A stretch of DNA of 64,000 nt, from positions 1 through 64,000 of the forward strand of contig JBMNFY010000019.1 in assembly GCA_050949565.1 (NCBI GenBank). Reading direction: 5' to 3'. Origin of the DNA: Kiritimatiellia bacterium (GTDB lineage Bacteria; Verrucomicrobiota; Kiritimatiellia; RFP12; UBA1067). Below are positions 3,850-31,184 of this stretch, piece after piece (position 1 is the first letter of the stretch; each line of letters opens with the position of its first letter). The notes below the pieces were generated by a model that saw only the letters and a program-made list of their open reading frames with translations, did no database searches and had not been told where the DNA came from. Position numbers and translations under genes: made by a program.

Positions 3850-6591
3850 TTAGTGTTCTGCAACCGGTTTGTAAAAGCGACGCCGTGCATTCTTGTCGAA
3901 CGGCACCTCAATCTGCTTAAGCGGCCAATCACCAGGGATGGGCTCGGTCGACCATGTCTCCCCCCCTACCGGCCGCCACGGGAGCGGCACCCACGACGTA
4001 CTTCTCAGATCATCTGTCGTCATCACCCTGAATGCAATACCAGCCAGCGTTTCGACATTCAGCGCGAGGCCCGGTGCGGCAGAATCCGGCACTACAGCCA
4101 GCGGATCGTAGGTTCCGGCCTGCGGCAACACCAATCGGCTGATCCGCATCCCGCCCACAAGCGCCCCGGTGCCGGCCAGCGCCTCGATCCACGTTGCAAA
4201 CCCGTCACCGTCTTGATCAAGAAGATCTGCGTAAGGGTCCCCCCCCAACCCCTGCGCCAGCAACCAATCGCTCGACGTTCCGCGCGCGGTTTGGTCAGGC
4301 CGTATGTTGAGCGATGGGTCACCCAAGAACACCATGTGCCGCAGGGAGAGTGCGTGGCTACCTCCCAGCGCGGCAAAAGTTCCGCACCAGACATCTCCCA
4401 GACGACGCGCACCGGTCGCCACCTGAGCACCAAAGGCCTGTGAGTAAAGCTTAGCCTGATCCGGCATCGTATAGCCAGCCGTGCTGATGACAGCCGCGAA
4501 ACCCGACACCGGATTCCTGACACCCGCCTCGGCGATCGCCTGTTGCTCTTGCCTCAGATCAAGTAGCGTCCAACGCCCCATGCGGCACCCCATCAGTAGC
4601 GCCACGGGCGCGAACGGCCATGTGGCGGTTCGGAGCATCGGGGCATCAAACAGCTTGCCGTCCCTTGTGTAGCCTGCAATGGTGTCACTGGAATGACCGA
4701 CGAAATAGTAGAAGCCGGCCCCCTCCTGCAACTCATATGAAACACCCGTTTCATGATACGTGTCACGCCACAACGGCGCCAGACGGCTCTGGTCCGGTGC
4801 GGGATAAAAGGTTTCGAGCCACCACCCCACGCTCGGGAAAGAGACGGCGGTAGATTCGGCAAACCCGGTGAAGTTCACGTATTTTGAACCCGTGTTCTGC
4901 CAATCGCAAGAGAACACCGCCTTACGCTTCCACGTCTCGGTCAACTCATACCGGATGGTCTTCTCCACCATGCGCGTCAGTTCCAGCGCGTTCGTCGCCA
5001 AAAAACGCCCGACCGCCACCTCCGGCACCGCGTCCCCCTGCACATCACCCAATACCGGATCATTCGGCAACAACAACGCGCCGTTTGCCGCCGCGTCCAC
5101 CTGCGACACCAAATACAGCGGAAACAAGGCTGGGTAGGCCCCCGCCTTGCCAGGCGGGAACACCTCCAATTTGTAATCGCTTCCGCCATGCCCGGCAAAC
5201 AGCAGATAGCGCAGCACCTGACCGCCCGCCTGCGCCACACCCGCCGCACTAAAGCGGCGGAAGGCCTCCGGATGCACCAAGCCGTCCGTGAAGGCGTTGT
5301 AGAGATCTTCCGCGTCGATCACCCGCGCGCGCAACCCCTGCGCCTCGCGAAACTCGGCCAGCGGTGCCGCCGCTTCCGCGAACCCCGGCCACCACCGGCG
5401 CGGCGGTGTCACGATCGCCAACTCGGGCATTTCGTCCGGGGCACTCCAGTCGATCACACGCGCACCACTGACGGACGGTTCAAAAGCGCCCTGCGACCGA
5501 TCGAAAACCACATAGCGCGCCGTCGCCCCGCCACATGCAAACAGCGCCTGCCAGCCCCCCTCCCCGTCCGGCACCACGCACACATCGGACAACGCTACCG
5601 GTTGAGCCGCGTCCGTCACCTCCCACACCGCCAGATTCTGTGTCGTGAAACCACCCGCCGCAATCACCGGGCCCTCCCCGCCCGTGCACTGCAGCATGCC
5701 CTCCTGCGCCGTGTAATATCTCGGGTAGTGCACTGTCGCGGCCAGCAACATAAAATCGTTAACGACCTGCGTACCGCCCGCATTTTGAACAGTCAACTCA
5801 ATCGTCCCGTTCGTCACCGTGCCCGCCGGCACAACATAGTCAAACGTCACCGCTTGCTCACCCGACCACCCTTGTGAACCGCCGCTCACCCCATTCACGC
5901 AAACTTCGCACAGATGTTCATCCGGCGTGGGGAAATCGTGGTATGACGCCAGTTCGACTCGCACGGTAACGCCCGTCACCGCCTCGGCGCACCATTCCGG
6001 TAGCACCACTGCCCGGGTTTGCGTACGTGCCGCTGCATACGTGGACCCGATCCACTCGCCAAAATTCAGTACATTGGTGAGCGTACCCACTGAACTGCGC
6101 CGGTCACGCGGCTCATAAGGCGCCAGAAAGGCTGCGCGGCAGGGCCTGTCAGACATGAACCAAAGATTGGTCGCGCCGCTTCCCGGCGCGGCCGCTTCTT
6201 GCGGCATCACCGCCCCATCCTCCAACGTCAGCCAATAGACATTTTCCGGTGCGTAAAGCTCGCTTGTCGGCTGGCCGTAAAAAAACAGGGCATCCCCCTC
6301 CGTGCGCCACGTCACCGCCGCACCGCCGCATGCGAGCGCCACCCCGCCCTGCGCCATCGCCGCACGCACGGTGTCCGCATCCCAGCCTGAGACCAGCGCC
6401 ACCTCGTCGGCGGTCACGCGGTAAACCCCTGCGTCGCGCACACCGATCCGCACACGATCCGCCCCCTCAACCGACGTCCAAGGCACCACGCGCGGCGCTA
6501 CGCCGATCCAGTGCTGCGCACCCAAGGCCAGCATCGGCCAGCACACGGCCAACGCCCAGCGCACACGTCCATTGGATGTTCTTCCTGTCAC
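3850..6591 (-). CDS. secreted C25 (gingipain/PorU-like) cysteine peptidase
   Basis: Signal peptide; VRIGVRDAGVYRVT N-domain; YLLFAG and PEVAVGRF; catalytic FVGHS and LLMGC; FLGDPSL; DQDGDG motif; C-terminal RRFYK. Confidence 0.85.
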   Translation of the reverse strand: MTGRTSNGRVRWALAVCWPMLALGAQHWIGVAPRVVPWTSVEGADRVRIGVRDAGVYRVTADEVALVSGWDADTVRAAMAQGGVALACGGAAVTWRTEGDALFFYGQPTSELYAPENVYWLTLEDGAVMPQEAAAPGSGATNLWFMSDRPCRAAFLAPYEPRDRRSSVGTLTNVLNFGEWIGSTYAAARTQTRAVVLPEWCAEAVTGVTVRVELASYHDFPTPDEHLCEVCVNGVSGGSQGWSGEQAVTFDYVVPAGTVTNGTIELTVQNAGGTQVVNDFMLLAATVHYPRYYTAQEGMLQCTGGEGPVIAAGGFTTQNLAVWEVTDAAQPVALSDVCVVPDGEGGWQALFACGGATARYVVFDRSQGAFEPSVSGARVIDWSAPDEMPELAIVTPPRRWWPGFAEAAAPLAEFREAQGLRARVIDAEDLYNAFTDGLVHPEAFRRFSAAGVAQAGGQVLRYLLFAGHGGSDYKLEVFPPGKAGAYPALFPLYLVSQVDAAANGALLLPNDPVLGDVQGDAVPEVAVGRFLATNALELTRMVEKTIRYELTETWKRKAVFSCDWQNTGSKYVNFTGFAESTAVSFPSVGWWLETFYPAPDQSRLAPLWRDTYHETGVSYELQEGAGFYYFVGHSSDTIAGYTRDGKLFDAPMLRTATWPFAPVALLMGCRMGRWTLLDLRQEQQAIAEAGVRNPVSGFAAVISTAGYTMPDQAKLYSQAFGAQVATGARRLGDVWCGTFAALGGSHALSLRHMVFLGDPSLNIRPDQTARGTSSDWLLAQGLGGDPYADLLDQDGDGFATWIEALAGTGALVGGMRISRLVLPQAGTYDPLAVVPDSAAPGLALNVETLAGIAFRVMTTDDLRSTSWVPLPWRPVGGETWSTEPIPGDWPLKQIEVPFDKNARRRFYKPVAEH

Positions 6592-6649: not shown

Positions 6650-7642
6650 TCACTGCTTTCTTTTTCGGAGACCACGCCACAGGAGAAGGGCAACGAAGAT
6701 ACCCGCGCCGACACCGACAGCGAGCGGGACAATTGATCGCTTTTGCGCCGGTGGTGGAACATCGGGCGTTTCCGCGATATGAGGGGCTTCGGTTTTTTCT
6801 GGCACGTTGTTGGTGGGCGGGGGTGGCTCGGTCATGGCGGGTTCATGGGTGAAGGCGGGCGGGGGTGGAGGGAAGTCCGGCATGACAAGCCCGTATTTGG
6901 AGGGATCGACGCTGCAGACGGGCTTTCCGTCCGCGTCGAACGAGACGGCCATCGTCACCAGTTCGGGCGGGAGGTTGGTCGCGTCTCCGTATTTCGCGAG
7001 GGCCTGTTTCAGCAGGTCGTAGACATAGACGGCCTGCGGGCCGGTGTTCGCCACGGAAGGCAGAAAAGGCGGCTCGTTGGTCGACCAGCAATATAATCGC
7101 GTCTTCGAAAGATTTAGCACATTCGTGCCTGAGGCGCGCGCTTTCAGGATTCGGAGACTTTCCAACCCCGCATTCTTTGCAAAATCCAGCTTGGAAGGAA
7201 GTTCCGCGTATTTCTCAAGCAGAGGGAGATCGCTAGCATCCCCTTTTTGCGAGAGATACAACAGGCTGTAATCTACAAACCGCCAATCGGGATTGCCACT
7301 CTTTGATACGAGGAACTCCCTCGTCAGCCGTATGATGTCAGCGTCCCCGGGCGAACACATGTTGACACCATCAATTCTACAGATTAACTCCGTCAGAGTA
7401 GAATAGGTGTAGTTGTCATAAGGTCTGCCTTCCTGCAATATCTTTTTGTATGCCGGAAAATCGTGATATCCGGTGGCCGCCTGGTCTGCCAACCACTGTG
7501 CAGCGGGGATCTCATCAATTGATGCAGTCCATAATCGCACAACCCGCGCCATTGACTCGTCCTCAGGCAAGACATTGATCTCTCCAAAAGTCGGGAAGAG
7601 TGCCCAGAATGCGAATATTGACATAAGCCGTGTTTTTTTCAT
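6650..7642 (-). CDS. secreted, C-terminally anchored hypothetical protein; candidate immunity partner of the zincin tip
   Basis: AGGAGG RBS; signal-like MKKTRLMSIFAFWALF; Pro-rich linker; C-terminal TM plus RKRK; ATG overlaps the stop of the HExxH ORF. Confidence 0.65.
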   Translation of the reverse strand: MKKTRLMSIFAFWALFPTFGEINVLPEDESMARVVRLWTASIDEIPAAQWLADQAATGYHDFPAYKKILQEGRPYDNYTYSTLTELICRIDGVNMCSPGDADIIRLTREFLVSKSGNPDWRFVDYSLLYLSQKGDASDLPLLEKYAELPSKLDFAKNAGLESLRILKARASGTNVLNLSKTRLYCWSTNEPPFLPSVANTGPQAVYVYDLLKQALAKYGDATNLPPELVTMAVSFDADGKPVCSVDPSKYGLVMPDFPPPPPAFTHEPAMTEPPPPTNNVPEKTEAPHIAETPDVPPPAQKRSIVPLAVGVGAGIFVALLLWRGLRKRKQ

Positions 7643-8710
7643 TGTACATGTCCTCCTGATCGTAGAGTTGGAATTTGCTCGACATACAATCGTTTGGAAG
7701 CGCTCACATCCATGAAGGGGGAGGCTGTTGAAAACATGAGATTGCATTTATCTGATACGTGGGCGTAAATGCCGAGCGCATGACACAGTTCGTGCGCGGA
7801 AACGAACGGCGCTATCTGGCTGGCCGAAATGAGGCAGTGGTCCGTATACGGGGCATCCAAAGGATCTGTATACCAATAGGATGCGGTTGTGTGCCCCGCG
7901 ACTTCGGCTGCCGGCGTGCTCTCTTATGCCGGGCACAAAGATCAGGCAGCGGTTGCTGGCGCCGTTCGTGACTGAGGCCAGAGCGCTTCGTGAACGACCG
8001 ACACCGGGCGATCTGCGTGAGAGAGCTGGAACTTCCAGATTGTTCGTCGACGCAACATGCCAGTTATCGACATCCACCTGCGGCGGCGCGTCGAAGTACA
8101 CAAGCGAGCCCATCTCCACGGTGATGTTGGCCTGTGCGAACCTCTCCTTGGCCGAGCGTGACCTGTGCACGAGCGCGGACAGCGTGTCGATGCAGGCGAC
8201 GCCGTTGGTGCGCATGATCGCCACATCGACGCCCACGGACTTGACGTCCACGCCGACCGGAGCGCTGAACACGTTGGTCTGCCCCCACCCGTCGACGTAT
8301 GACCCGCACACGCTGCTCAAGAGTTGCGACAGGAAGAGGCGGTTGGTCGAGTCCGGCGCGACACCGTACACGGTCGTGTCGAAGTGCGCGTCATCCCAGT
8401 CCGAGACCAGCAGCAGGTTCGTGGACGCGAAGACGCCCGGCGAGACGCGGGGCAGCGTCATCACGCGCGATGCCGCGTCATACGCGGAATCGCCCGGATG
8501 CTCAGTCCAAAGGACGACCTCAACCGACTCGGCATCCGCGCGGCGCTCGTCGGTCACGCGGACGCGGAAGCGGTCCGCGTCCGCGCTTATGAACTCGCTC
8601 TGACGGAACACGGCGTTGGTCACGATATAACTGCCCGCCTGGACATACCCGTTGGAAAACGCGCTTTCCCATTTCGCGACTTGCAGGCTATTTGTGACGA
8701 CCGTAGTCAT
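7639..8710 (-). pseudogene. orphan C-terminal cassette with a zincin-like metallopeptidase motif (frameshifted)
   Basis: ORFs 7748-8710 and 7639-7860 overlap in different frames; the distal part has AHELCHALGIYAH plus a Met-turn-like NLM; no signal peptide. Confidence 0.6.
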
Positions 8711-8727: not shown

Positions 8728-9876
8728 TCAGTTCGGATTCATGATTCGTCCCAGAAACAGGATGTTGCCCGAGCTGTTTTCCTGAATAAGAAAGAGAAAG
8801 GGATGGTCAGCACAAAAATGGGGGGGAAGGGACTCAAGAAAACTTGCAGCCGTACTGGCAGTCGCTTCGGTTCCCATTTCGTTGACTTCGATATACGTCT
8901 GGTGGATGACTTTATTGATGTACAGAGGCTTTTCGGTGATGCCACTGAAGTCGGCTTTGGGCGTGAAGGCCAATTTAAGCCCGAGTGCCTCAAGCGCAGG
9001 ATTGAGGATAGTGGAACCCCATGAGAATTTGAAACGCGGGATTCGCACAACCACTTCGGCGACTTTCATACGGGATGTCCAAGCCGCTAATGACGTAGCA
9101 GAAAGTTTCTCCTCCGCATGAGCGAAATCCTCGGCAGACTTCCCATCTGGGAGAATGAAAAGCATGGAAAAAGCGTTGCCTTGGTACGGAAGTCTGAGCA
9201 ACTGGAGTCCGTCGGTTGCGAGATAAGCAAAACGCCCCGTCTGCATCATTAACGGCACAAGGATTTGATCCGTCCCGTTGATGAAAAACGGCTCCTTTCG
9301 TGTGTCAGATAATTTGAATTGCGATTTCCAATTCCCTTTGAAATAGACAGCATTGATTAGCATCAGGCGGGTGCCTGTCTCAGGGGGGGCGGTGAGGATG
9401 TTCTGAATCTTGCCATTGGTCTGTTTCCCGACCCAATTGTTGATGCGAAAACGTACCGCCGAGGAGTCGTTGACAAAATCAACAGGGAACGGCGTTACGC
9501 CATATCCCGTCTTGAGGTGCTTGATGAAAGTTGGTTTGACGGGATATCCCTGTTGTAGAAAAAGGGCGCATGCAAGGTCAAAACGAACAGCTCCCAGATG
9601 GCGGGACAATGGGAACCTTCCGGGGACAGAGGGCGAATGTAGAACTTGTGCGAACTCCTCAGCGGTTTCGCCCTCCGCTCCTCCGTAAGCCATGGAAAGT
9701 GTCGCAAAGACGCTGACAGGCGAGATGCAAAGATTGCCTGATCGGTGGCGCACTTGTTGGTAAAGATCACATCCGAAGGCGTTGATTGGCGACAAACCGC
9801 CGTCAGCGCAGACGGTCAACGCATGACTCGCCACAGTAATGGAAAAAAGTGTCAGCACCTTTGTTTTTAAAGACAT
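8728..9876 (-). CDS. secreted serpin
   Basis: NLCISPVS, INNWV..QTNGKI, LINAVYFKGNW, hinge EVNEMGTEA, FCADHPFLFLI and ILFLGRI; signal peptide. Confidence 0.95.
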   Translation of the reverse strand: MSLKTKVLTLFSITVASHALTVCADGGLSPINAFGCDLYQQVRHRSGNLCISPVSVFATLSMAYGGAEGETAEEFAQVLHSPSVPGRFPLSRHLGAVRFDLACALFLQQGYPVKPTFIKHLKTGYGVTPFPVDFVNDSSAVRFRINNWVGKQTNGKIQNILTAPPETGTRLMLINAVYFKGNWKSQFKLSDTRKEPFFINGTDQILVPLMMQTGRFAYLATDGLQLLRLPYQGNAFSMLFILPDGKSAEDFAHAEEKLSATSLAAWTSRMKVAEVVVRIPRFKFSWGSTILNPALEALGLKLAFTPKADFSGITEKPLYINKVIHQTYIEVNEMGTEATASTAASFLESLPPHFCADHPFLFLIQENSSGNILFLGRIMNPN

Positions 9877-10581
9877 TGTGAATATCCTTTCTCCCCTTCA
9901 ATCACACCCGCCGAGCATTTCGCCAGTGGCGGCGTCCACGTAGATGCTCACCCAAGGAAAGCCTGTGCCCTCCGGCTTCTGGAAGGCGTTGTTCCAGACC
10001 AGCGCGACCTCGTCCCACTTCGGCTCGTAGTCAGAAAATCCGCTGTCGTCTGCAGGGCGGATGTAGTTGTAATTTGGGCTGATGTACTCCAGTCGGTTGC
10101 TGTGGAACGTAAGCTTCGGAGTCAGCTCTTTCACCGGAAAGTACTTCTTGAGGTATTCAAAGCCTTTTTTTCTCCCCTCTTCGGATGTCAGCACGACCTT
10201 CGTTGTGAGATTCGTCGGTATCTGGTAGAGACAACTGAACCATTCTCCGAGGGGGTATCCCGGCAGGTCGGCAATATGGACACCAACGGGATAAAGAGTC
10301 GGGTAGCCGTTGACACAAGGCGTGAAAGCGAATTCCCATACACCGTGAAAGAAACCGAACGAACGGCACTCGAACTTCGTCTTGTCCCAGAGGTTGGACA
10401 CCCCAAACATAGCTGCGTACTCAGCGGCTTTCAGCCGCGCTTCGCGCTCGTTGGTGTGGATCGGCTTGTGGTCGGGAACACTGTAACAAACGTCTGGGTA
10501 GCGGTACACGTAGTTATTGACGATCAGTACAGTATCAGAGCCATCATCCAGAAACTCAAGAGGCTCTTGCAAAACCCCCTC

Positions 10582-10630
10582 GTGACATGGGCGTCCCGCC
10601 CATGAAACACGGGCAGGATGCCCGTGCCAC
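10582..10630. repeat. REP-like palindrome doublet inside the IS end
   Basis: CATGGGCG-tcc-CGCCCATG and CACGGGCA-gga-TGCCCGTG hairpins. Confidence 0.7.
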
Positions 10631-10801
10631 GCCTGCACGCAAGGGATTTTGCAGGATTTTCTGACGAAGAGGCGCAGCGGTTGCTGAAAAACGGACGCGA
10701 CAGGGCGTTTTTCCCGTTTTTCGGATGTTTCCGGGCAGACCCCGGCGCCTCCGCCCGGTCGCGGGCGGGTTTTCAGGGAGGGCAGTCTGCCGCGGGGCCG
10801 G

Positions 10802-11917
10802 TCAGGGAAGCATTCTGAGCATCTGCTCGGCGGCGATGACCAGCAGCCCGAAGGCCAGATGCGCCGCCACCTTCGCCGGGCCGCGCACCCGGACGTTCCG
10901 TCCGCCGTGCTCTTCGTGCAGATGGCTGTTGACGCGCTCGACGGCCGTGCGTTCGTGGTAGCGCCGGGCTTCCGCCGGGGAGAACTCGATCTTCTCGCCC
11001 CGGCGCGGGTTGTGGTCGATGAGCGCCACGTGCCCCAGCCGCGCCGACATCTCGCGGATCTCCTTGGCGTCGTAGGCGGCGTCGGCCAGATCATAGAGGT
11101 TGACGATCCGTCCGGCGGTCATCTGCGCCAGCGGGATGGCGGCCTGGCTGTCGTGCAGGCTGGCGGAAGTGAGTATGAAGCTGACCGGGATATCGCCGTC
11201 GATCACGTCCAGATGGGCCTTGTAGCCGCGCCAGCATTCGGTCTTGCCCTGGCTGTTGCGCTTGCAGCCCCAGTCGCATGCGCGGGGCAGATCGGCGAGA
11301 TTCGCGGAGAGGTCGCGCTTGAGCTGCCGTTGCAGCCGGGTGGGATCCGGCGGAGGAGTCTGGGGCTCGTCTTTGCGGCGGCGTCCGCGCCTGCCGCGCT
11401 TCCTCTCGCGCGGGGCGCGGGGCTTGGCCTCGGCCTTCTCGCGGGCGTGGATCGCGGTCGAATCGCGGTTGACGTGGCCGGCGAGCTTGTCGCCGTAGTG
11501 GGCTTCGAGCAGCGCCTCGTGGATTCGCTGCGGGCGGCCGTCGCGGGCGAAGGCGTCGAAGGCGCGGGAGAAGGTCGCCTCCGAAGGCACCTCGCCGAGC
11601 GTCTCCCATCCGCAGAGGCGGCGCAGGGTCGGACGGTGGCGGATCGCGTCGATCAGGTCGCGTGTCGTGGCGAAGTTCCAGACCGCCTTGGCGATGAAGG
11701 CCTTGCAGAGCGCCAGCCGGTCGCTGGGCGGGCAGCCGTTGCCGACCCAGCGGTAGGCGGCCATGTGGTCCTGCGGCGCGCAAAGCTCGCAGACGGCCAC
11801 GAACTGCCGATGCTTCTCGTCGAGTTCGCCGATCTCGTCCTCCAGCATGGGGAACAGCCACGACTGGATGCTCTCCCAGAGTTCGCCAAGGGATCTGTGT
11901 TCCGATGTCGTCTTCAT
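10802..11917 (-). CDS. DDE transposase (DUF772/DDE_Tnp_1 type)
   Basis: LRRLCGW..VPSEATFSR, RDSTAI, GYKAHLD, ADAAYD and RTAVERVNS motifs. Confidence 0.9.
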   Translation of the reverse strand: MKTTSEHRSLGELWESIQSWLFPMLEDEIGELDEKHRQFVAVCELCAPQDHMAAYRWVGNGCPPSDRLALCKAFIAKAVWNFATTRDLIDAIRHRPTLRRLCGWETLGEVPSEATFSRAFDAFARDGRPQRIHEALLEAHYGDKLAGHVNRDSTAIHAREKAEAKPRAPRERKRGRRGRRRKDEPQTPPPDPTRLQRQLKRDLSANLADLPRACDWGCKRNSQGKTECWRGYKAHLDVIDGDIPVSFILTSASLHDSQAAIPLAQMTAGRIVNLYDLADAAYDAKEIREMSARLGHVALIDHNPRRGEKIEFSPAEARRYHERTAVERVNSHLHEEHGGRNVRVRGPAKVAAHLAFGLLVIAAEQMLRMLP

Positions 11918-11972
11918 GCGCCAAGGCTCCTTCGTTCGATGCGCACACCCGTTCTTTCGGGCGACAGAGCCT

Positions 11973-12001
11973 TTATAACATATTGCGCGGCAATAGTCTA
12001 C
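11973..12001 (-). promoter_or_regulatory. putative promoter of the outer transposase
   Basis: TAGACT-N17-TATAAA on the minus strand. Confidence 0.45.
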
Positions 12002-12025
12002 AACTATTTTCAAAAAAACGGGGGG

Positions 12026-13482
12026 CGCGGTATGTCATAGTCATGGACACCGTAGCCAAAATCGCGGTGTCCGGAAATCAAGCGCATCCGTCAAATACTG
12101 GACACCGTGCTAGAATCGGCTCGCATGAGAAACGAGATGTCACGGAAAGCCACGATGGAATACGTCGGCGCGAAGCGTCGCGCCTATTCAAAACTGAAGA
12201 GCAAGAAGGCCAAGAGTGCCGCGATCGACGACTTCTGCCAGGTCACGGGGGCCGAGCGCAAATACGCCATCCGGCTGCTGACCGGCAACCGGAAGTACCG
12301 CGATCACGCCGGGCGCGGGAAGACGTACACGCCCGGGGCGGAAGCCCTGTTCCTGCGTCTCTGGCGCGCCTCGGGACGCATGACGCCCCAGTACCTTGTG
12401 ACCGTGACGGGCCGCCAGATGGCCGCGCTGCGCGAGCTCGAGCATGTCGACGAGGCGGCCGCGGCGCAGGTTCTGCGCATGAGCGCGTCGACGATGGAGC
12501 GCATCCTCCGCAAGCACCCGCGCGAGGCCCCGCGCCGCCGCAACCGCCGCAGCGGGGCGAACGCGCTGGCGTCGAGCGTCCCCTGCGTCCCGGGCGAGGC
12601 GCTGCCGCCCGCCGCCCCCGGCGACACGCAGGTCGACACGGTCGCGCTCTGCGGGGGCGACATGAGCGGCAACTTCTTCTGGATCCTCACGCTCACGGAC
12701 CGCCTGACGCAGTGGACGGAGCTGCGCTGCGTCTGGAACCGCGGCGCGGCCGCGACCAAGGAAGGCCTCGCCGACGCCGAGGCCGCGTTCCCGTTCCCGC
12801 TCACGGCCATGCACTCGGACAGCGGGCTGGAGTTCCTCAACGCCCACGTGCTCGGCTACGCGCGGGACCGCCCCCGCCCCCTCGCCTTCACCCGTTCCCG
12901 CCCCGGGAACAAGAACGACAACGCCCGCGTGGAGCAGAAGAACGCCTCCGTCGTCCGCGAGTATTTCGGCTACGAGCGCATCGACCGCATCGAGCTCAAG
13001 AAGGACATGGACGTCCTGTGCGCGAAGATATCGCTGTACAACAACCTCTTCCGCCCCTGCAAGCGGCTCATCTCCAAAACCAAAAGGCCGGACTCGCACG
13101 GCTTCTCCAAGCGTTACGACAAGCCCGCCACGCCCCTCGACAGGGTGATTGCGTCGGGACACGCGGACCCCGCCGTGATCCGGCGTCTTACCGCGCTCCG
13201 CGAAAAGACCAATCCGATCCGCCTCCTTGAGGACATCCGCCGCCGATACGCGCTGATCCTGCGCAAGCAGAACAAGCTCGCCAAACGCGAAGCGCAAGGG
13301 ATGACCACCCCGGGTTCCGCGCCCTGTCCCGCCGGAATACCGGCGGGACAGGGCGCGGAACTCGGCCACCCTTCACGCCGTTGACCAGCCCCTCGTCCCT
13401 TGACCCCCTCGGTGTCCAGTATTTGACGGATCGTCACCGCCTCAAAAAAACCTACGGTGTCTTTTCTATTTGACGGACCGCG
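12026..13482 (+). mobile_element. inner IS with an integrase-core transposase (ISNCY-like)
   Basis: Ends CGCGGT...ACCGCG flanked by GGGGGG on both sides (candidate TSD); subterminal inverted motif TCCGTCAAATACTGGACACCG / CGGTGTCCAGTATTTGACGGA plus degenerate second copies. Confidence 0.75.
12125..13384 (+). CDS. rve/integrase-core transposase
   Basis: RKYAIRLL, QVDTVALCGG, LTLTD, HSDSGLEFLN and TRSRPGNKNDNARVEQKN motifs. Confidence 0.9.
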   Translation: MRNEMSRKATMEYVGAKRRAYSKLKSKKAKSAAIDDFCQVTGAERKYAIRLLTGNRKYRDHAGRGKTYTPGAEALFLRLWRASGRMTPQYLVTVTGRQMAALRELEHVDEAAAAQVLRMSASTMERILRKHPREAPRRRNRRSGANALASSVPCVPGEALPPAAPGDTQVDTVALCGGDMSGNFFWILTLTDRLTQWTELRCVWNRGAAATKEGLADAEAAFPFPLTAMHSDSGLEFLNAHVLGYARDRPRPLAFTRSRPGNKNDNARVEQKNASVVREYFGYERIDRIELKKDMDVLCAKISLYNNLFRPCKRLISKTKRPDSHGFSKRYDKPATPLDRVIASGHADPAVIRRLTALREKTNPIRLLEDIRRRYALILRKQNKLAKREAQGMTTPGSAPCPAGIPAGQGAELGHPSRR

Positions 13483-14173
13483 GGGGGGTTGACAAACTCT
13501 CTGGAATATGCGAGGATACCTTTGTTCGTTTTGGGCGAGGCATGGTGCCGCGCAGAAAATGAAGGAGCAGGCTGGAGCGTCGGGCTCGCCCGCGGTGGGC
13601 GGCTGGATATTTCAGCCTGCCGGACGCCCCGCGAGGCAAGCCGTCAGGCGCAGCGTCGCGGGGGGTTTTGCAAGAGCCTCTCAAAATAACACTTTCTGGT
13701 TTTATCCGTGATATTGAAACTGTACCTGCTTTCAATACGGCTCCACGGCATCGACTCCGAAATCGGTTTGCGCGATATATCGACCTTGCTTCGCGTGAAT
13801 TCGTTCGTCCAGACCCCGCGGTGATACGTCCAGACAGGCTTGTCACTTCTAAACGGGTTCTTTGCCACAAAACAATTGTTGGTCACCCAGAGGCGTTCCA
13901 CCCACTTAAGGGCAAGGCTTTCATAATGTTCCGCCTGCTGTCGTGTGGGCGGCTTAGGCGGCGGGGGCGGGACAGGCCGTTTCCAACCTGCGGTTTCGGC
14001 CTCCCTCTCAAGTTCCTCCATGAGGGCAAGATGCTTGGCCAGAGCTTCTTCCTCTTTCTGCTTGCGACGTGCCTCGTCCGGTAAGGATGCGGCCGGCCTC
14101 CTGTCCGCGAAAATGCAGAACGCGACTGCCAAAACAAAAAATAGAACCAAGGTTTTCATTTTTTCCTTTCCGG

Positions 14174-14647
14174 TTAGAACGGCTTTTTGTTGAGGTCAAG
14201 AAAGACTGAGTTGTCCTTATCCACCAGATTTAGTCTCGCTTCGTAATACCAATAGTCACGTTTAGGATATTCAGTCCGTATTTTTCGACGCACTTCGTCT
14301 ACCGCCTCCTCAACCGTTCTCGTTTGCCCCGTCCCTGTGGAATCCAGTTCTTGCATCAGCATCTTGGGGATGCCGACGGAAAACTGGCGCACGACCTCGC
14401 AGTCCCATCCGATGTAGTTTTTGGCGTTGAGTTTCGTGCCGATGTCCCGCACGGCATGTGTGCTTTGCGTTTCATACTCGGGAGAAAAGCCGATTATTCT
14501 GGTGTTTTCGCCAAACCTTATCGGCCTGTACCATCGATCGGTCGACTCGCAGGTGTTCATGAACACGAGGTTGTATTCGAGGTCGTCCCGGGAGATGTCA
14601 GACGCCTTGAAATAATCCTTCGCATACCTGTTGTTGCCGACGGTCAT
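14174..14647 (-). pseudogene. orphan divergent C-terminal tip of the caspase/CHAT-like peptidase
   Basis: Homologous to 16802-17250 (LVFMNTC.STD, HAV.DIG..LNA.NY.GWDCEV, PKMLM.ELD, KDNS..LDLNKK) but begins after the catalytic-His strand. Confidence 0.8.
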
Positions 14648-15714
14648 TTGCTGAAGTCCAAGCCGCCAATCATTTCGCCTGTCACGGCATCCACGTAGAT
14701 AAACGCAGAGCGGGGATAATCCTCTTTATCCGTGGACTCAAACGACACGATGTACGCCAGCCGAACCTCGTCGCGTTTGGGGACGTAGTCGGAAATGCCG
14801 ACCCCGTAGTCAGAACTAGGATGGATGTAGTTGTAGTTCGGCTTGACGTACATCAGCCAGTTGTTGTTGTCGTACACCATCCGGGACGCGACTTCCTTGA
14901 AGGGGAAGTATTTTTTAAGGTACTCCTCCGCCTTGGATGCCGCCTGCCCGGAGGACAGGACTGCCCGCGACGGCAGATTAGTCGGGCACCAGTCCAGTGA
15001 AGAAACAAAATAGCCGAGCGGCATTCCCGGGAGGTCTGCCACCTCGAGGCCCACGCTGTACGGGGTTGCCAAGCCGTTTGTGTAAAAATGCCCGTCATAA
15101 ATCCACACTCCCTCCTCATACTGGAATTTGCGTTGCTTGAACTTCACGTTGTCCCACAAATTGTGGACGCCGAACATGGCCGCGTATTCGCTCATTTTCG
15201 CTTTGACCGCCTCCTCCGACGTATGGAGCGGAGGATGGTACGGCTGCCCAAGGATGTAAGGAAGATAAGGGACATCGTGTTGTCTGTAGAGCGGGTTGCT
15301 GATCGAAGTCACTTTTTCAGAGCGTCCAAAAAAATGCACGCAAAGTTCTCTCGAAGTTGCTACGGTTTTAGAATCCACAATAGGCTCAAACGACCTATAG
15401 ACAAACACATCGAAAAAATCGCTTCCGGGGCCAGCCGGGTCTTTACAAACAGCGGATGCCCGTCCCGATGTGTACAAGTCGGGGCGGTATTTCTGCAGGG
15501 GGTACCATTGCGGCTTTCTGTTGCTGAAAGGGTTGCCGCAAACATAATAATCCATGCCCGTCCACAGACGCTTGGCCCAGGCATCGGCCAGACGGATATA
15601 CGGTGCCTGCTCTTCCGCCGACAGCACGGGGGGGATCGGCTCGGCGCAGCAGGCTTCCGCCAGCGCAGAGGCGAGGATGATGAATGACAGACTTTGCTTC
15701 GCAATTCTGATCAT
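14644..15714 (-). CDS. secreted immunity-like protein with PepSY-like C-terminus, paralogue B
   Basis: Signal peptide; tandem paralogue of 15739-16791; ends IYVDAVTGEMIGG. Confidence 0.75.
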   Translation of the reverse strand: MIRIAKQSLSFIILASALAEACCAEPIPPVLSAEEQAPYIRLADAWAKRLWTGMDYYVCGNPFSNRKPQWYPLQKYRPDLYTSGRASAVCKDPAGPGSDFFDVFVYRSFEPIVDSKTVATSRELCVHFFGRSEKVTSISNPLYRQHDVPYLPYILGQPYHPPLHTSEEAVKAKMSEYAAMFGVHNLWDNVKFKQRKFQYEEGVWIYDGHFYTNGLATPYSVGLEVADLPGMPLGYFVSSLDWCPTNLPSRAVLSSGQAASKAEEYLKKYFPFKEVASRMVYDNNNWLMYVKPNYNYIHPSSDYGVGISDYVPKRDEVRLAYIVSFESTDKEDYPRSAFIYVDAVTGEMIGGLDFSK

Positions 15715-15738: not shown

Positions 15739-16791
15739 TCATTTGCTGAAGTCCAAGCCGCCGATCATTTCGCCTGTCACGGCATCCACGTAGATAAGCG
15801 CGGTGCAGGGATCGTCGTCTTTGTCCGTGGACTGAAACGGCACGGAGTACACCATCCGAAGCTCATCGCGTTTGGGAACGTAGCCGGAAATGCCGATCCC
15901 GTAATCAGAATCGGGGTGGATGTAATTGTAGTTCGGCTTGACGTACTCCAGCCAGTTGGTGTTGCTGTACACCATCCGGGACGCGATTTCCCTGAAAGGG
16001 AAGTGTTTTTTCAGGTACTTCTCTGCCTTGGATGCCGCCTGCCCGGAGGACAGGACCGCCCGCGACGGCAGATTGGTCGGGCACCAGTCCAACGTGGAAA
16101 TAAAATGTCCGAGCGGCATGCCCGGGAGGTCTGCCACCTCGAGGCCCACGATATACGGGGTTGCCAAGCCGTTTGTGTAAAAGTGCCCGTCATAAATCCA
16201 CACCCCCTCCGCATACCGGAGTTTGTGCTGCTTGAATTTTACGCTGTCCCATAAATCGTGGACGTCGAACATGGCCGCGTATTCGCTCATTTTCGCCTTG
16301 ACCGCCTCCTCCGACGTATGGAGCGGAGGATGGAACGGCTGCCCAAGGATATATGGAAGATAAGGGACGTTGTGCTGTCTGTAGAGCGTATTGCTGACGA
16401 TGCTCACCTTGTGGGAACGCCCCAGAAAATGCACCCTGAGTTCGCAGCGTCCCGTAATTGTGATGAGTGAGCGACAGACAACCACATCAAAAAAGTCGCT
16501 CCCGGGAAGGGCTGGAGCTTTGAATGCGGCACCCACCGGCCCCGAGGTGTACAAGTCGGGGCGGTATTTCTGCAGGGGGTACCATTGCGGTTTTCTGTTG
16601 CTGAAAGGGTTGCCGTGAACATAATAATCCATGCCCGTCCACAGGCGTCTGGCCCAGGTATCGGCCAGACGGATATATGACGCCTGCTCTTCCGCCGACA
16701 GCACGGGGGGGATCGGCTCGGCGCGGCAGGCTCCCGCCAGCGCAGAGGCGAGGATGATGAATGACAGACTTTGCTTCGCAATTCTGATCAT
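15739..16791 (-). CDS. secreted immunity-like protein with PepSY-like C-terminus, paralogue A
   Basis: AAGGAG RBS immediately after the stop of the large peptidase-tip gene; signal peptide; ends IYVDAVTGEMIGG. Confidence 0.75.
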   Translation of the reverse strand: MIRIAKQSLSFIILASALAGACRAEPIPPVLSAEEQASYIRLADTWARRLWTGMDYYVHGNPFSNRKPQWYPLQKYRPDLYTSGPVGAAFKAPALPGSDFFDVVVCRSLITITGRCELRVHFLGRSHKVSIVSNTLYRQHNVPYLPYILGQPFHPPLHTSEEAVKAKMSEYAAMFDVHDLWDSVKFKQHKLRYAEGVWIYDGHFYTNGLATPYIVGLEVADLPGMPLGHFISTLDWCPTNLPSRAVLSSGQAASKAEKYLKKHFPFREIASRMVYSNTNWLEYVKPNYNYIHPDSDYGIGISGYVPKRDELRMVYSVPFQSTDKDDDPCTALIYVDAVTGEMIGGLDFSK

Positions 16792-26589: not shown

Positions 26590-28196
26590 ACCTGCCCCGT
26601 CTTTTCCGTCTTTCACCGCTCACGCAGAAACGGTTACGCAACTTTCTGCGTATCCGTCGTGCGCGTGCAGCGTTGATCCTGCTCGGCATCCTCTTCGCCA
26701 TCAGTCTGGTGGCCGAGTTGCTCTGCAACAGCCGTCCGCTTTTTCTGCGCGTCAACGGCCGCGACTTCTTTCCCTTTATCCAGAAACTGACGCAACGTGA
26801 CCTACTGGGCGAAGAGGCGGAAGCCACCCCGGTCAACTACGCCGCCTTCATCGCGTCGCCGGCCTTCTCCACCAACCCCGCCAATCGCGTGGTCTGGGCG
26901 CCAGTACCGTACAGCCCCGGCGATGTGGTGGATGCCGCCACCCTACGCCATGCGCGCACGGTCAGGGTCTCCGTCGTGCCCGAAGTCCACGTCGGGCGTA
27001 TCAACCTGTTGCGCGACGGCACCATCGTGCGCCCGCAAAGCGTCGCCCCGTTTTTCCGGGGGACAACACCCATCGCTGGCACGCGCCTTGATACGCAATG
27101 GCGCCTGACTGAGGCGTTGCGCGACACGCTGACGCGACGGTTCGATGGACGCGCCGCGCCGCAAGAGCGCTTCGACTTAGAACACGCCAGCGTCACTGGT
27201 TTGACCGCACGCGTGACGTTGCCCGAATGCGCCGCGCGTTCCACGCCGCCGCAATCGGTGCGCCTGATGTTCCGGCAGTCGCAGCCTCCCGACAACCCCC
27301 TGCAACTGCGTTTCAAACGTCTGTCGGACGGCACGCTCGCCGCAACCGACCGTCGTGCGTGGAATCGCGTGCCGGAGGCCCACCGCCCCGACATCCTGCG
27401 TCTGGCCGATGAGGCCTTCAACGGCACTGCGCCATCGGCCACGATCGACTGGAAAGGACGCAAGGCGGCGGTAGCCTGCGCCCTGAATGAAATCGCCTGG
27501 CCCTATCCGCCGGTGCGCGGACACTGGATGGGCATCGACGCCGCCGGCCGCGATGTGTTGGCGCGTGTGCTCTACGGCATGCGCATTGCGATGATCTTCG
27601 GTCTGCTGCTGGCCTTCTGGGCCATGTTCTTCGGGCTGACCCTCGGCGCCATTCAAGGTTATTTCGGCGGTTGGATCGACATCGCCGGACAGCGCCTGAC
27701 CGAAATCTGGAGCGCCCTCCCCTTCCTGTATGTCATGATCTTTATCGGTGCAGCTCTCGGCCGCAGCTTCTTGATCCTGCTCGTCTGCTACAGCCTCTTC
27801 AACTGGATCGGCATCTCCCACTACATGCGCGCCGAGTTCCTGCGCCTTCGCAACCGTACCTTTGTGGAGGCGGCACGTTGCCAAGGCCTTTCCGTGCGGC
27901 GTATCATTTTCATTCACATCCTGCCCAACGCCCTCACACCGCTCATTACGCTCTTCCCGTTCACTTTGATCGGTGCGATCGGCTCGCTGGCGGCTCTGGA
28001 CTTCTTGGGTTTCGGCCTGCCGCCGCTTACGCCGAGTTGGGGCGAGCTGCTCCAGCAGGCGCAGCAGTTCCGCCGGGCGTGGTGGTTGATCCTTTTCCCC
28101 TCGCTCGCGCTCTTTACCGTAATGTTGCTGACGGTACTGGTCGGCGAGGGCCTGCGCGATGCTTTCGATCCGCGCCAACACACGAAGATGGAATAA
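26586..28196 (+). CDS. yejE: ABC peptide transporter permease (YejE-like) with a large periplasmic insertion
   Basis: ELLCNSRPL, HWMGIDAAGRDVLARVLYG, RAEFLRLR..FVEAAR, LDFLGFGLP and GEGLRDAFDPR. Confidence 0.8.
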   Translation: MNLPRLFRLSPLTQKRLRNFLRIRRARAALILLGILFAISLVAELLCNSRPLFLRVNGRDFFPFIQKLTQRDLLGEEAEATPVNYAAFIASPAFSTNPANRVVWAPVPYSPGDVVDAATLRHARTVRVSVVPEVHVGRINLLRDGTIVRPQSVAPFFRGTTPIAGTRLDTQWRLTEALRDTLTRRFDGRAAPQERFDLEHASVTGLTARVTLPECAARSTPPQSVRLMFRQSQPPDNPLQLRFKRLSDGTLAATDRRAWNRVPEAHRPDILRLADEAFNGTAPSATIDWKGRKAAVACALNEIAWPYPPVRGHWMGIDAAGRDVLARVLYGMRIAMIFGLLLAFWAMFFGLTLGAIQGYFGGWIDIAGQRLTEIWSALPFLYVMIFIGAALGRSFLILLVCYSLFNWIGISHYMRAEFLRLRNRTFVEAARCQGLSVRRIIFIHILPNALTPLITLFPFTLIGAIGSLAALDFLGFGLPPLTPSWGELLQQAQQFRRAWWLILFPSLALFTVMLLTVLVGEGLRDAFDPRQHTKME

Positions 28197-28197
28197 C

Positions 28198-29175
28198 ATG
28201 CTGCTCGAACTTTCAGATCTGCACATCCAGTTCGAAACCGAAGATCAAGTGATCCGCGCGGTCGACGGTGTGTCGTTCACGCTTGACCGTGGCCAGGTGC
28301 TCGGCCTAGTCGGCGAGTCGGGTTGCGGCAAATCCGCCACGGCGATGAGTATCCCCCGGTTGCTGCCAATGCCGCCGGCCCGCATCACGCAGGGCAGCAT
28401 TCGCTTCGACGGCCGCGAATTGGTCACCTTGCCGTTGCCCGAGTTGCGTCAATTGCGCGGCGCGCGCATCGGCGTGATTTTTCAAGATGCCCTCTCCGCG
28501 CTCTCGCCGTTGCACCGCATCGGCCGTCAGCTTGCAGAGGTTCTCAAGCTACACCGCGACATCTCGATTGCCGCCGCGCGTGACATCGCGCGCGACTGGC
28601 TGGGCCGCGTCGGCATCCCCGATCCGGATGCCTGCCTGACCGCCTACCCGCACGAACTTTCCGGCGGCATGCAGCAGCGCGTAATGATTGCCATGGGCTT
28701 GATCCTTGAGCCCGATCTGGTGATTGCTGACGAACCCACCACCGCGCTCGATGTGACGATTCAAGCGCAAGTGCTGAATCTGATGCGCCGTCTCTACCGG
28801 CAAAACAGCGGCCTGCTTTTGATCACGCACGACATGGGTGTGGTTTCACAGATGGCCACGCATATTGCGGTCATGTATGCCGGCCAGCTTGTGGAACAGG
28901 CCGACGCCGCAAGCTTTTTCGCCAAGCCGCGTCACCCCTACTCGATCGCGCTGTTGGAAGCCATGCCCTCCGCCGCCACACGCGGCCATCGGCTCAAAGC
29001 CATCCCCGGACAGGTTCCGTCGGCCGGGCAATTCCCGCCGGGTTGCCGCTTTCACGACCGTTGCCCCGTTGCGCAGCCATCGTGTGCGCACACCCCGCCC
29101 GCACTTGAGCCCTGCGACGACCACCTCGTGCGTTGCCCCCACGCACGTGGGGGCAACGCACGAAGGGGGATTTAG
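28198..29175 (+). CDS. oligopeptide ABC transporter ATP-binding protein (OppD/DppD-like)
   Basis: [24 protein letters not shown] and C-terminal GCRFHDRCP. Confidence 0.92.
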
Positions 29176-29186
29176 GAGTTAGTGCA

Positions 29187-31184
29187 ATGAAAAGAGATGC
29201 TTGCTTGTTTGCTTGGTCGGATCTGCGGTAAGTGCTTTCACGCGTGACCTCGTGTGGCTCGGCACAGATACCGATAACAACTGGGATCTCGTCACCGATA
29301 ACTGGTTTGTGAAAGGCGACGACACGAAGACACGCGTCTGTTTCGAGCCGGGCGATAACGTCTACTTCCTCGAAAGCGACTGGGTGAACCCTTCGACGCA
29401 GCTCGTCCGAACCAACACAACCGCATGGGCGAAGGAGTTCGATATCGGGTCGATCGTCATCAGCAACGACACCACGACCTTCACGTGGAAATGCAACGTG
29501 GGGAGCTACGTCGACGCTTTGTGTTTTCAGGCGACCTCTATCGACAAGTATGGCAATGGTGCTCTGGCGACCCCCTTCTGCTTCCAGTGGAACTGCGACT
29601 ACACCGTACATGGCGGGCGGTTCATCTCGTCCAACGGATCATCCTATCCCGTCGACCACCGTAATGACACGGGTTCCATGATCGTTCCGCGCACGGTCAG
29701 CTTCCTCACAGGGTCGACGTGGGATGTGACAGGAGGCGTGGGGTTCGGTGGTGCCGGCAACGGAGCACCGCTCCACGTGGTGTTCTCCAACGCAACGTTC
29801 AAGATCTCGCAGAGTTCGCGGTACGTGAGCTTGCCGAGGACAACGTTCTACGACACATCCTTCATCATCAGCAGCAGCGCGGAGGCATCGCGTGCACTGC
29901 TGTTCACCGGTGACATCGTCATCACCGGTAGCACACCGGCCGTTATTCCGGCCGGCCGCACAATGACCTTTGGTCGGAAGGATAGGATGCCCCTCGATGT
30001 AAGGGTCGATGATGTCACCGGCGATGACGCGACCGACTTCACTGTGGGGGGCATACTCTGTAATATGGATGTCATCTACCCTTCCGTCTCAGACAAGCCT
30101 TATTATTTCGGCTACGGTAACTTCAGGAAAACCGGTGCGGGCACAATGTCAATCACCCACCCCGACAACACGTTCACCGGTAACGTCGAGATTGCCGAGG
30201 GCACGTTGCGGCTCGACAACACCAGTTCGCCTAACATCCGCGACGGCTACAACTATCGGTGCAGTACGCTCGGTGCTGTGGATGGCTACGACCGGACGAT
30301 CACGGTCAAGAATGGCGCAACGCTGTTCACCGGAAACAATGTGCCGTTCGGCCTCGTCAATACGCCGATGAGCTTCAAAATCGCAGTCGAGGAGGGCGGT
30401 GCACTTACGTTGGGTCAGACACAGAACAACTTCGGCCAGCTTTCACTGGAGGGCGGCAACTTCTCGTACACAAACGGTGCCCAGGCAACCTGGATCGAGT
30501 ACGGACTGATGGCCATTGGCAAGAAGCTGTCCTTCTCCGGCTCGACACCCTATGACCTGCAAGTCCGCGGCACCCACAACGTCATATACCTCGGCTTCAC
30601 GCTTGACAGTCAACTTGACACAGAACCGGTCAGTCCGAGTCAGCCGCACCTTACAAACCTCTGGAGTGTGGTTGAGATCGAGGTCGCCGACATTACGGGC
30701 GATTCCGGCATTGACGCCGCAATCGGGCTGCCGATGCGCGACATGATCAACATGTGCTACCCGACCTACGGCAACAATCCCAACGGCTACACCTACGACC
30801 CGTGGAAGTACTGCTATTTCCGTGACGGTTGACGCCGGTGCCTTCCTGGGTGGCACGGGCACAGTCTCGGCGGTGACGTTGACGGACGGTGCGGGTTTCA
30901 TCTGCACGGCGAAACGCGGTCAGACGGACGTCCTGAAAATGCCGTCGCTGACGATGCAGGGTGCAGTGACGGTGCGCGTGCTCAATCCCGATGCGACCGA
31001 ATTTTCCACATTCAACCAGAATCTGCTGAAGGTCACTGGCCTGCCCGCATCCGTTGACTTTACCAACTGGAGCGTCTCGTTTGAAGGGGTCGAACAGTCA
31101 AAGATGTTTACCTTTGCGTACGATTCAACGACGGGCATCGTCTCGGCGCACTATGCGGGCGGCACGATGATTCTTCTTCAGTGA
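29187..31184 (+). pseudogene. secreted PATR-repeat protein, disrupted (frameshift near the start; frame break near 30820)
   Basis: FRKTGAGTMSI..NTFTGNVEIAEGTL repeats in 29201-30832; the tail 30822-31184 (LGGTGTV...GGTMILLQ) is in another frame; ATG 29187 is out of frame by one base. Confidence 0.65.

Follow-up and report, generated by a model that had tools for sequence, protein, structure and literature searches.

Is the 157-codon open reading frame (ORF) that lies between two immunity genes of the window (the whole 64,000-nucleotide stretch of Kiritimatiellia DNA analysed here) a displaced toxin tip, a store of exchangeable segments, or debris? It resembles the C-terminal tip of a large gene encoded upstream on the same strand, starts downstream of the predicted catalytic histidine of that tip, and is called the orphan below. 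Toxin arrays often contain truncated orphans, and the fragment alone would be ordinary; the mosaics found in this orphan and its relatives bear on whether toxin orphans are debris or donors.

Layout of the array

The genes followed one another on the minus strand in the order stalk, main tip (tip1), imm1, imm2, orphan, imm3, serpin, HExxH-tip remnant, HEAT-like partner and C25 peptidase (Table 1). The locus is most likely a polymorphic-toxin-like array of Kiritimatiellae, composed of a membrane-anchored stalk, a C-terminal caspase-fold cysteine protease as putative toxin and an exported PepSY-type putative inhibitor after each tip. The N-terminal hydrophobic segments of the stalk and the signal peptides of the partners suggest Sec export.

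Table 1. Features of the array in the window (aa, amino acids; nt, nucleotides; IS, insertion sequence).
Feature	Position	Strand	Description
Stalk of the main gene	17396..21367	minus	Two N-terminal hydrophobic segments, TSP3-like repeat, Cys-rich region, hinge; six frame changes
Conserved 199-aa hinge	17739..18335	minus	Identity 192/199 to L003, 188/199 to P0013, 195/199 to P0014
Main tip (tip1)	16802..17501	minus	Predicted caspase/CHAT-fold protease domain; His codon 17299-17297, Cys codon 17173-17171
imm1	15739..16791	minus	Signal-peptide protein, predicted inhibitor; YpeB/PepSY-type fold (from the 87%-identical L003 orthologue)
Echo of the first four orphan codons	15731..15742	minus	Overlaps the imm1 stop; imm1/imm2 duplication junction
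imm2	14644..15714	minus	Tandem imm1 paralogue (85.6% nt); stop overlaps the orphan ATG (ATGA)
Orphan ORF	14174..14647	minus	157 aa, ATG start
Orphan N-half, residues 1-71, type X	14435..14647	minus	Contains Cys33; 40/40 informative sites as in P0002
Crossover window, residues 72-75	14423..14434	minus	Switch of informative sites, inside the DIG..LNA block
Orphan C-half, residues 76-157, type Y	14174..14422	minus	53/53 informative sites and 82/82 residues as in the end of P0013
imm3, N-terminal piece	13681..14159	minus	159/159 identical to residues 1-159 of intact P0061
IS	10560..13680		Perfect 20-bp inverted repeats, 4-bp target duplication
DDE transposase in the IS	10802..12013		
Nested rve-type element inside the DDE element	12107..13384		
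imm3, C-terminal piece	9898..10559	minus	218/219 identical to residues 160-378 of P0061
Serpin	8728..9876	minus	Signal-like N-terminus, intact-looking hinge; Pfam Serpin E 1.7e-105
Probable further cassette	6650..8710	minus	Stalk-like remnant and HExxH tip (8710..7639), HEAT-like partner (7642..6650)

The main gene was intact in two relatives, as a single ORF of 1449 aa at the locus L003 and as the 1331-aa protein P0013; relative to the intact L003 gene, the window gene changed frame where the tip begins, near 17395. The housekeeping genes of the window matched Pfam profiles nearly end to end, and the GC-rich stalk changed frame six times. These changes could be real decay or sequencing errors in an unpolished sequence, and, if errors, they would weaken the case for decay of the entire locus. 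The window stalk matched the Pfam family TSP3_bac with an E-value of 0.026; in the L003 gene and in P0013 the same family was the sole Pfam match at E ≤ 0.001, with no FHA/VENN or RHS/YD repeats, and by this repeat criterion the array is neither CDI nor Rhs. Right after the hinge, identity to P0013 dropped to 32/95, and the alignments point to the exchange of whole tips at this hinge.

The serpin is probably a further inhibitor of the array. No serine-protease tip adjoined it and it is possibly an orphan inhibitor; serpins can inhibit caspases across protease classes. In the probable further cassette, the HExxH-tip remnant had one frame change (near 7880-7900), and the HEAT-like partner had a signal peptide, a C-terminal hydrophobic tail and a 3' tail 82% identical in nucleotides to L003 12316-12397. 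A gingipain-like C25 peptidase (3850..6591, minus strand), belonging to the same protease clan as the tips, lay directly downstream of the array.

Predicted fold of the tip and its partner

The L003 tip (91% identical to tip1) was modelled from a 35-sequence alignment with a pLDDT of 90.6. The model matched SAVED-CHAT (Foldseek E 8e-8; VIA Z 17.0, rmsd 2.9, 184 aligned residues) and gingipain (Z 15.9), as well as separase and caspases, and the best Atlas match of the tip was a cluster with CHAT on 41% of its members (score 0.94). The full tip had HG and Cys motifs, with the Cys invariant across the 35 aligned sequences and the His held in the motif HNGHG of tip1; in the model, His68 and Cys110 sat in the usual strand-end motifs. 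From this model, the full tip is predicted to be a caspase/CHAT-fold (clan CD) protease domain in which these two residues would be catalytic, sharing fold and His-Cys arrangement with clan CD proteases (CHAT/separase, gingipain C25) at a sequence identity of 11-17%. None of the 35 aligned members matched Pfam CHAT (PF12770) at E ≤ 0.1, and one showed a weak C25 match (E 0.08). Searching 1.84 billion representatives with a profile yielded 35 matches, so the tip family is small in these data. Pfam gave no match for the orphan or the tip, the PDB sequence search returned two weak, unrelated matches only (E 0.016 and 0.022), and no relatives were found among the plasmids and phages searched.

A PepSY-like gene came directly after each of the seven tips with DNA context. 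For imm2 the PepSY match was below the Pfam cut-off (E 0.014; 16.2 bits vs. 24). The model of the L003 partner (pLDDT 80.1) matched the YpeB C-terminal domain (E 1e-7) and M4/M36 propeptides, sharing with YpeB/PepSY proteins a repeated PepSY-type fold (structural superposition with Z 13.5, rmsd 7.7 and 218 aligned residues). PMC6393860 describes PepSY domains as probable inhibitors of proteases, and the exported PepSY-type partners are here predicted to inhibit the neighbouring tips. The PepSY proteins matched were a regulator of a spore lytic enzyme and propeptides of metalloproteases; caspase inhibitors were not among them. Paired with caspase-fold tips, the PepSY-type partners would be candidates for a new class of natural inhibitors of this fold. 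Literature searches covering few subscription papers and no supplements found neither polymorphic toxins of Kiritimatiellae nor this pairing (PepSY was met in another context only), and the protease-plus-inhibitor family seems undescribed.

Tip and partner similarities were correlated (rho 0.86, 8 of 5040 permutations, seven pairs, no starred branch), in line with congruent tip and immunity trees, which the sequence-only reading of this DNA had proposed as a check. Two tip-partner groups cut across genomes, separating L001 from L004, which belong to one MAG, and imm3 grouped with the partner of the Y-like tip of L001. This congruence is expected from linkage alone, since neighbours share history.

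What the orphan retains

The four blocks of sequence by which the orphan had been recognized were all found in it and in the main tip alike, and in the tip family alignment variable loops were interleaved with the conserved blocks. The two proteins were 43.8% identical over 153 aa (E 1e-34), with an alignment score of 298 vs. a maximum of 59 among 1000 shuffles; the longest exact nucleotide stretch common to both was 17 nt, at the Cys block. As noted from the sequence, the orphan started past the HG motif (about 10 residues after it, at about model residue 78) and lacked the His; it retained Cys33 (codon 14551-14549), so that the His-Gly/Cys dyad was incomplete. Model residues 1-77, comprising three strands, two helices and the predicted catalytic His, had no counterpart in it. 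The orphan also lacked the 199-aa hinge and, by signal prediction, a signal peptide; its frame was closed upstream, and scans for promoters and terminators remained at shuffle level (4 vs. 2.8 and 18 vs. 16.1). Seen against the tip model, it is probably a catalytically dead fragment that would be unable to fold. With the hinge, the His and three core strands missing, reloading of the whole tip is not possible, and with no hinge and a 17-nt longest match to tip1 only segments downstream of the His could move. The same His-less start, with the ORF intact, was seen in three variants of the orphan, which could reflect selection rather than recency.

The divergent immunity paralogue reported directly after the orphan was imm3, which followed it after a gap of 14 nt and was about 39-40% identical to imm1 and to the L003 partner. 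Both pieces of imm3 were near-identical to the intact P0061, so the insertion that split it is recent. The start of the orphan was echoed after imm1, so the junction between immunity gene and orphan is probably older than the imm1/imm2 duplication. The end of imm2 was also considered as tip-derived, the orphan frame upstream of the ATG being faintly like the post-HG strand, and this was rejected: the partners of L003, L004 and P0057 had the same type of tail before different downstream sequence.

A chimera of two tips

Ninety-three sites distinguished P0002, a 157-aa ORF with an equally His-less start, from the full-length gene product P0013. The orphan was P0002 at the first 40 of these sites and P0013 at the last 53, with one switch between residues 71 and 76, zero unexplained sites and a runs p of 6e-27; its N-half was identical to those of the His-less ORFs P0001 and P0002. 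In segment trees built on 20 of the 46 aligned rows, it left the P0002/P0037 clade (0.99) for the P0013 clade (0.99). The diverged P0037 was collinear with P0002 and sided with it at 36 of 41 sites, so P0002 was taken as the native combination. The orphan is a clean two-parent chimera, not one displaced allele.

The same two parents also made up P0001, joined at another block (residues 99-103; 52 + 41 sites). Two further mosaics were noisier: P0004, tip1-like up to residue 72 and P0003-like beyond, and P0012, which finished with the tip1 C-terminus. The four mosaics switched at three different blocks, and the L003 immunity gene was itself mosaic, resembling imm2 over its first two thirds and imm1 over the rest. 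Recombination through conserved blocks does occur inside the toxin domain, and one parent pair joined at two blocks gives an unusually clean view of it. Of the 46 aligned rows, 30 were His-bearing tips, and the type-X half was not found on any of these (best identity 37/73, best loop identity 7/25); by eye it was also missing from the 13 matches, of 53 in the tip search, that lay outside that alignment. None of the four loci obtained by genome scanning from 17 candidates had the orphan.

The sequence-only reading had offered two origins, a former C-terminus displaced by an incoming tip and immunity module, or a reservoir able to recombine back through a conserved block. Part of the first survives, as the full-length P0013 has both the last 82 residues of the orphan and the hinge; the N-half came instead from a His-less ORF, and nothing ties the orphan to a former tip of the window stalk. 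Of the second, recombination at blocks holds and the return of a whole tip does not, the hinge being gone and imm3 broken. Absence of any full-length gene with this tip type, together with incongruent tip and immunity trees, would have spoken against both; a full-length gene with the C-half, though not the N-half, was found, and tips and partners were congruent.

Comparison with known systems

In the available text on Tox-Caspase polymorphic toxins (Zhang et al. 2012, PMC3482391), these share with the window a constant trafficking body, a variable caspase-like C-terminus and downstream immunity, together with standalone cassettes and strings of immunity genes. Caspase tips are paired there with Imm57, Imm36 and a SUKH-type entry, and PepSY does not occur in the 300,000 of 354,187 characters of text covered. 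In contrast to those systems, the window stalk had no RHS or FHA repeats and exchange also took place inside the toxin domain. The orphan cdiA-CT/cdiI and rhs-CT/rhsI pairs (PMC3150448, PMC3967940) are, in the parts of these papers available, also tip fragments with immunity genes downstream of a main gene, subject to IS disruption and to interchange between main and orphan positions, as in the window. They usually retain the VENN/core junction and a toxin domain that is complete and active, and as a rule they have no start codon. The window orphan has lost hinge and His, begins with an ATG that overlaps the stop codon before it, and is chimeric within the domain. Junction, complete toxin domain and intact immunity gene, which characterize a reloadable module, were all lacking in the orphan.

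For the tandem esaG and tipC immunity genes of type VII systems (Garrett et al. 2022, PMC9484751, as far as available), recombination between conserved blocks produces mosaic genes with deletion of the intervening DNA, and this is the nearest mechanistic precedent for both the orphan junction and the imm1/imm2/L003 mosaics. It was shown there for immunity genes, and its authors found no evidence that tspA recombines with its fragment, whereas in the window family toxin-domain sequences are clean mosaics.

Origin of the orphan

Most likely, tandem cassettes recombined and left the orphan behind as a remnant, now decaying, that would still be able to donate segments. In such an array, whole tip-plus-inhibitor modules would swap at the hinge, and smaller segments at conserved blocks inside protease and inhibitor. 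An older type-X tip would have been trimmed to the stop of the preceding immunity gene, with loss of hinge and His; a crossover at DIG..LNA with a downstream type-Y tip, simplest as a deletion between two tandem cassettes, would then have brought in the Y-type 3' end together with imm3; and the IS would have split imm3 last. We give this course of events a probability of about 0.65. P0001, P0002, P0013, P0014 and P0061 are known as protein sequences alone and, the parental proteins being without DNA or neighbours, the parental array and the deletion were not observed. The product could at most donate post-His segments to a His-bearing tip.

Other readings, not all of them mutually exclusive, were weighed against the remnant. 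The orphan might be a silent donor under selection, part of a harmless library of loop variants copied blockwise into the expressed tip while the inhibitors exchange matching blocks. The four mosaics with three switch blocks, the alternation of conserved blocks and variable loops, the mosaic inhibitors and the His-less start common to three variants fit this, but with the X loop on no His-bearing tip no donation from the orphan was seen, the longest exact match to tip1 is short, imm3 is broken and a single crossover suffices for each mosaic; we regard it as unlikely. If it were true, toxin specificity would diversify inside one domain, in the style of antigenic variation, rather than by swaps of whole tips. 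Equally doubtful is the wider idea of a combinatorial protease-inhibitor arms race in Kiritimatiellae, in which His-less donor loops, including the post-Cys loop, would be recombined blockwise into the expressed toxin and PepSY-type immunity shuffled in parallel. That the orphan was the complete former C-terminus of the window stalk, displaced by incoming tip1 and immunity and still reloadable, is very unlikely: its two-parent structure without hinge or His contradicts the strict form, and P0013, which has a Y-type tip on the same hinge, shares no more than 27-60% identity with the window stalk at some distance upstream of that hinge. Tip1 and its immunity gene do occur elsewhere in the chromosome and on another stalk (L003, adjoined by a purA-like gene, unlike the window), and tips of the tip1 and Y types seem to exist in full-length genes as well as in fragments (P0004, P0048, P0014), as displacement would lead one to expect.

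The array might not be a weapon at all, the stalk-protease being a surface-processing enzyme, the PepSY proteins its chaperones or propeptides in trans and the array a product of paralogue turnover. Gingipain and protease propeptides were among the closest folds, a C25 peptidase lies just downstream and a dedicated delivery system was not found in a Pfam scan of 57 proteins. On the other side, the tips are exchanged on a hinge that stays constant, the arrays also contain tips of unrelated types (HExxH tip, DUF900-like hydrolase), every tip has its own partner and the cassettes are lower in GC content (0.50-0.59 vs. 0.61-0.67). These features fit the conflict systems described in PMC3482391, and we hold this reading to be distinctly improbable. 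Finally, the mosaics could be chimeric contigs assembled from strain mixtures rich in paralogues, since the sources are metagenomic assemblies with short contigs and the window stalk changes frame six times. The switch windows, however, contain 4 and 3 identical residues (about 9-14 nt), below usual assembly k-mers (k of 21 or more), and the neighbouring housekeeping genes match their profiles almost completely, so that we give such an artefact hardly any credence. The remnant of recombination between tandem cassettes is the reading retained here.

Related loci and flanking genes

The named relatives were mostly from Kiritimatiellae or Verrucomicrobia. Standalone cassettes lay downstream of the main gene in the window and in L001, L002 and L003, and in the latter three other gene fragments likewise started at or just after an immunity stop. 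Three tips were found in L002 (92..7961). One was caspase-like but very divergent and had a PepSY-like partner, one belonged to the orphan's family and one was a DUF900-like alpha/beta hydrolase. In L003 (11534..12784), a partner gene was followed by two stalk fragments, each begun at the preceding stop; the second started like P0014, which suggests that P0014 is itself an orphan, a long one with a Y tip. On the plus strand of the window (22810..30832), an oligopeptide-type ABC transporter was flanked by two PATR-repeat proteins.
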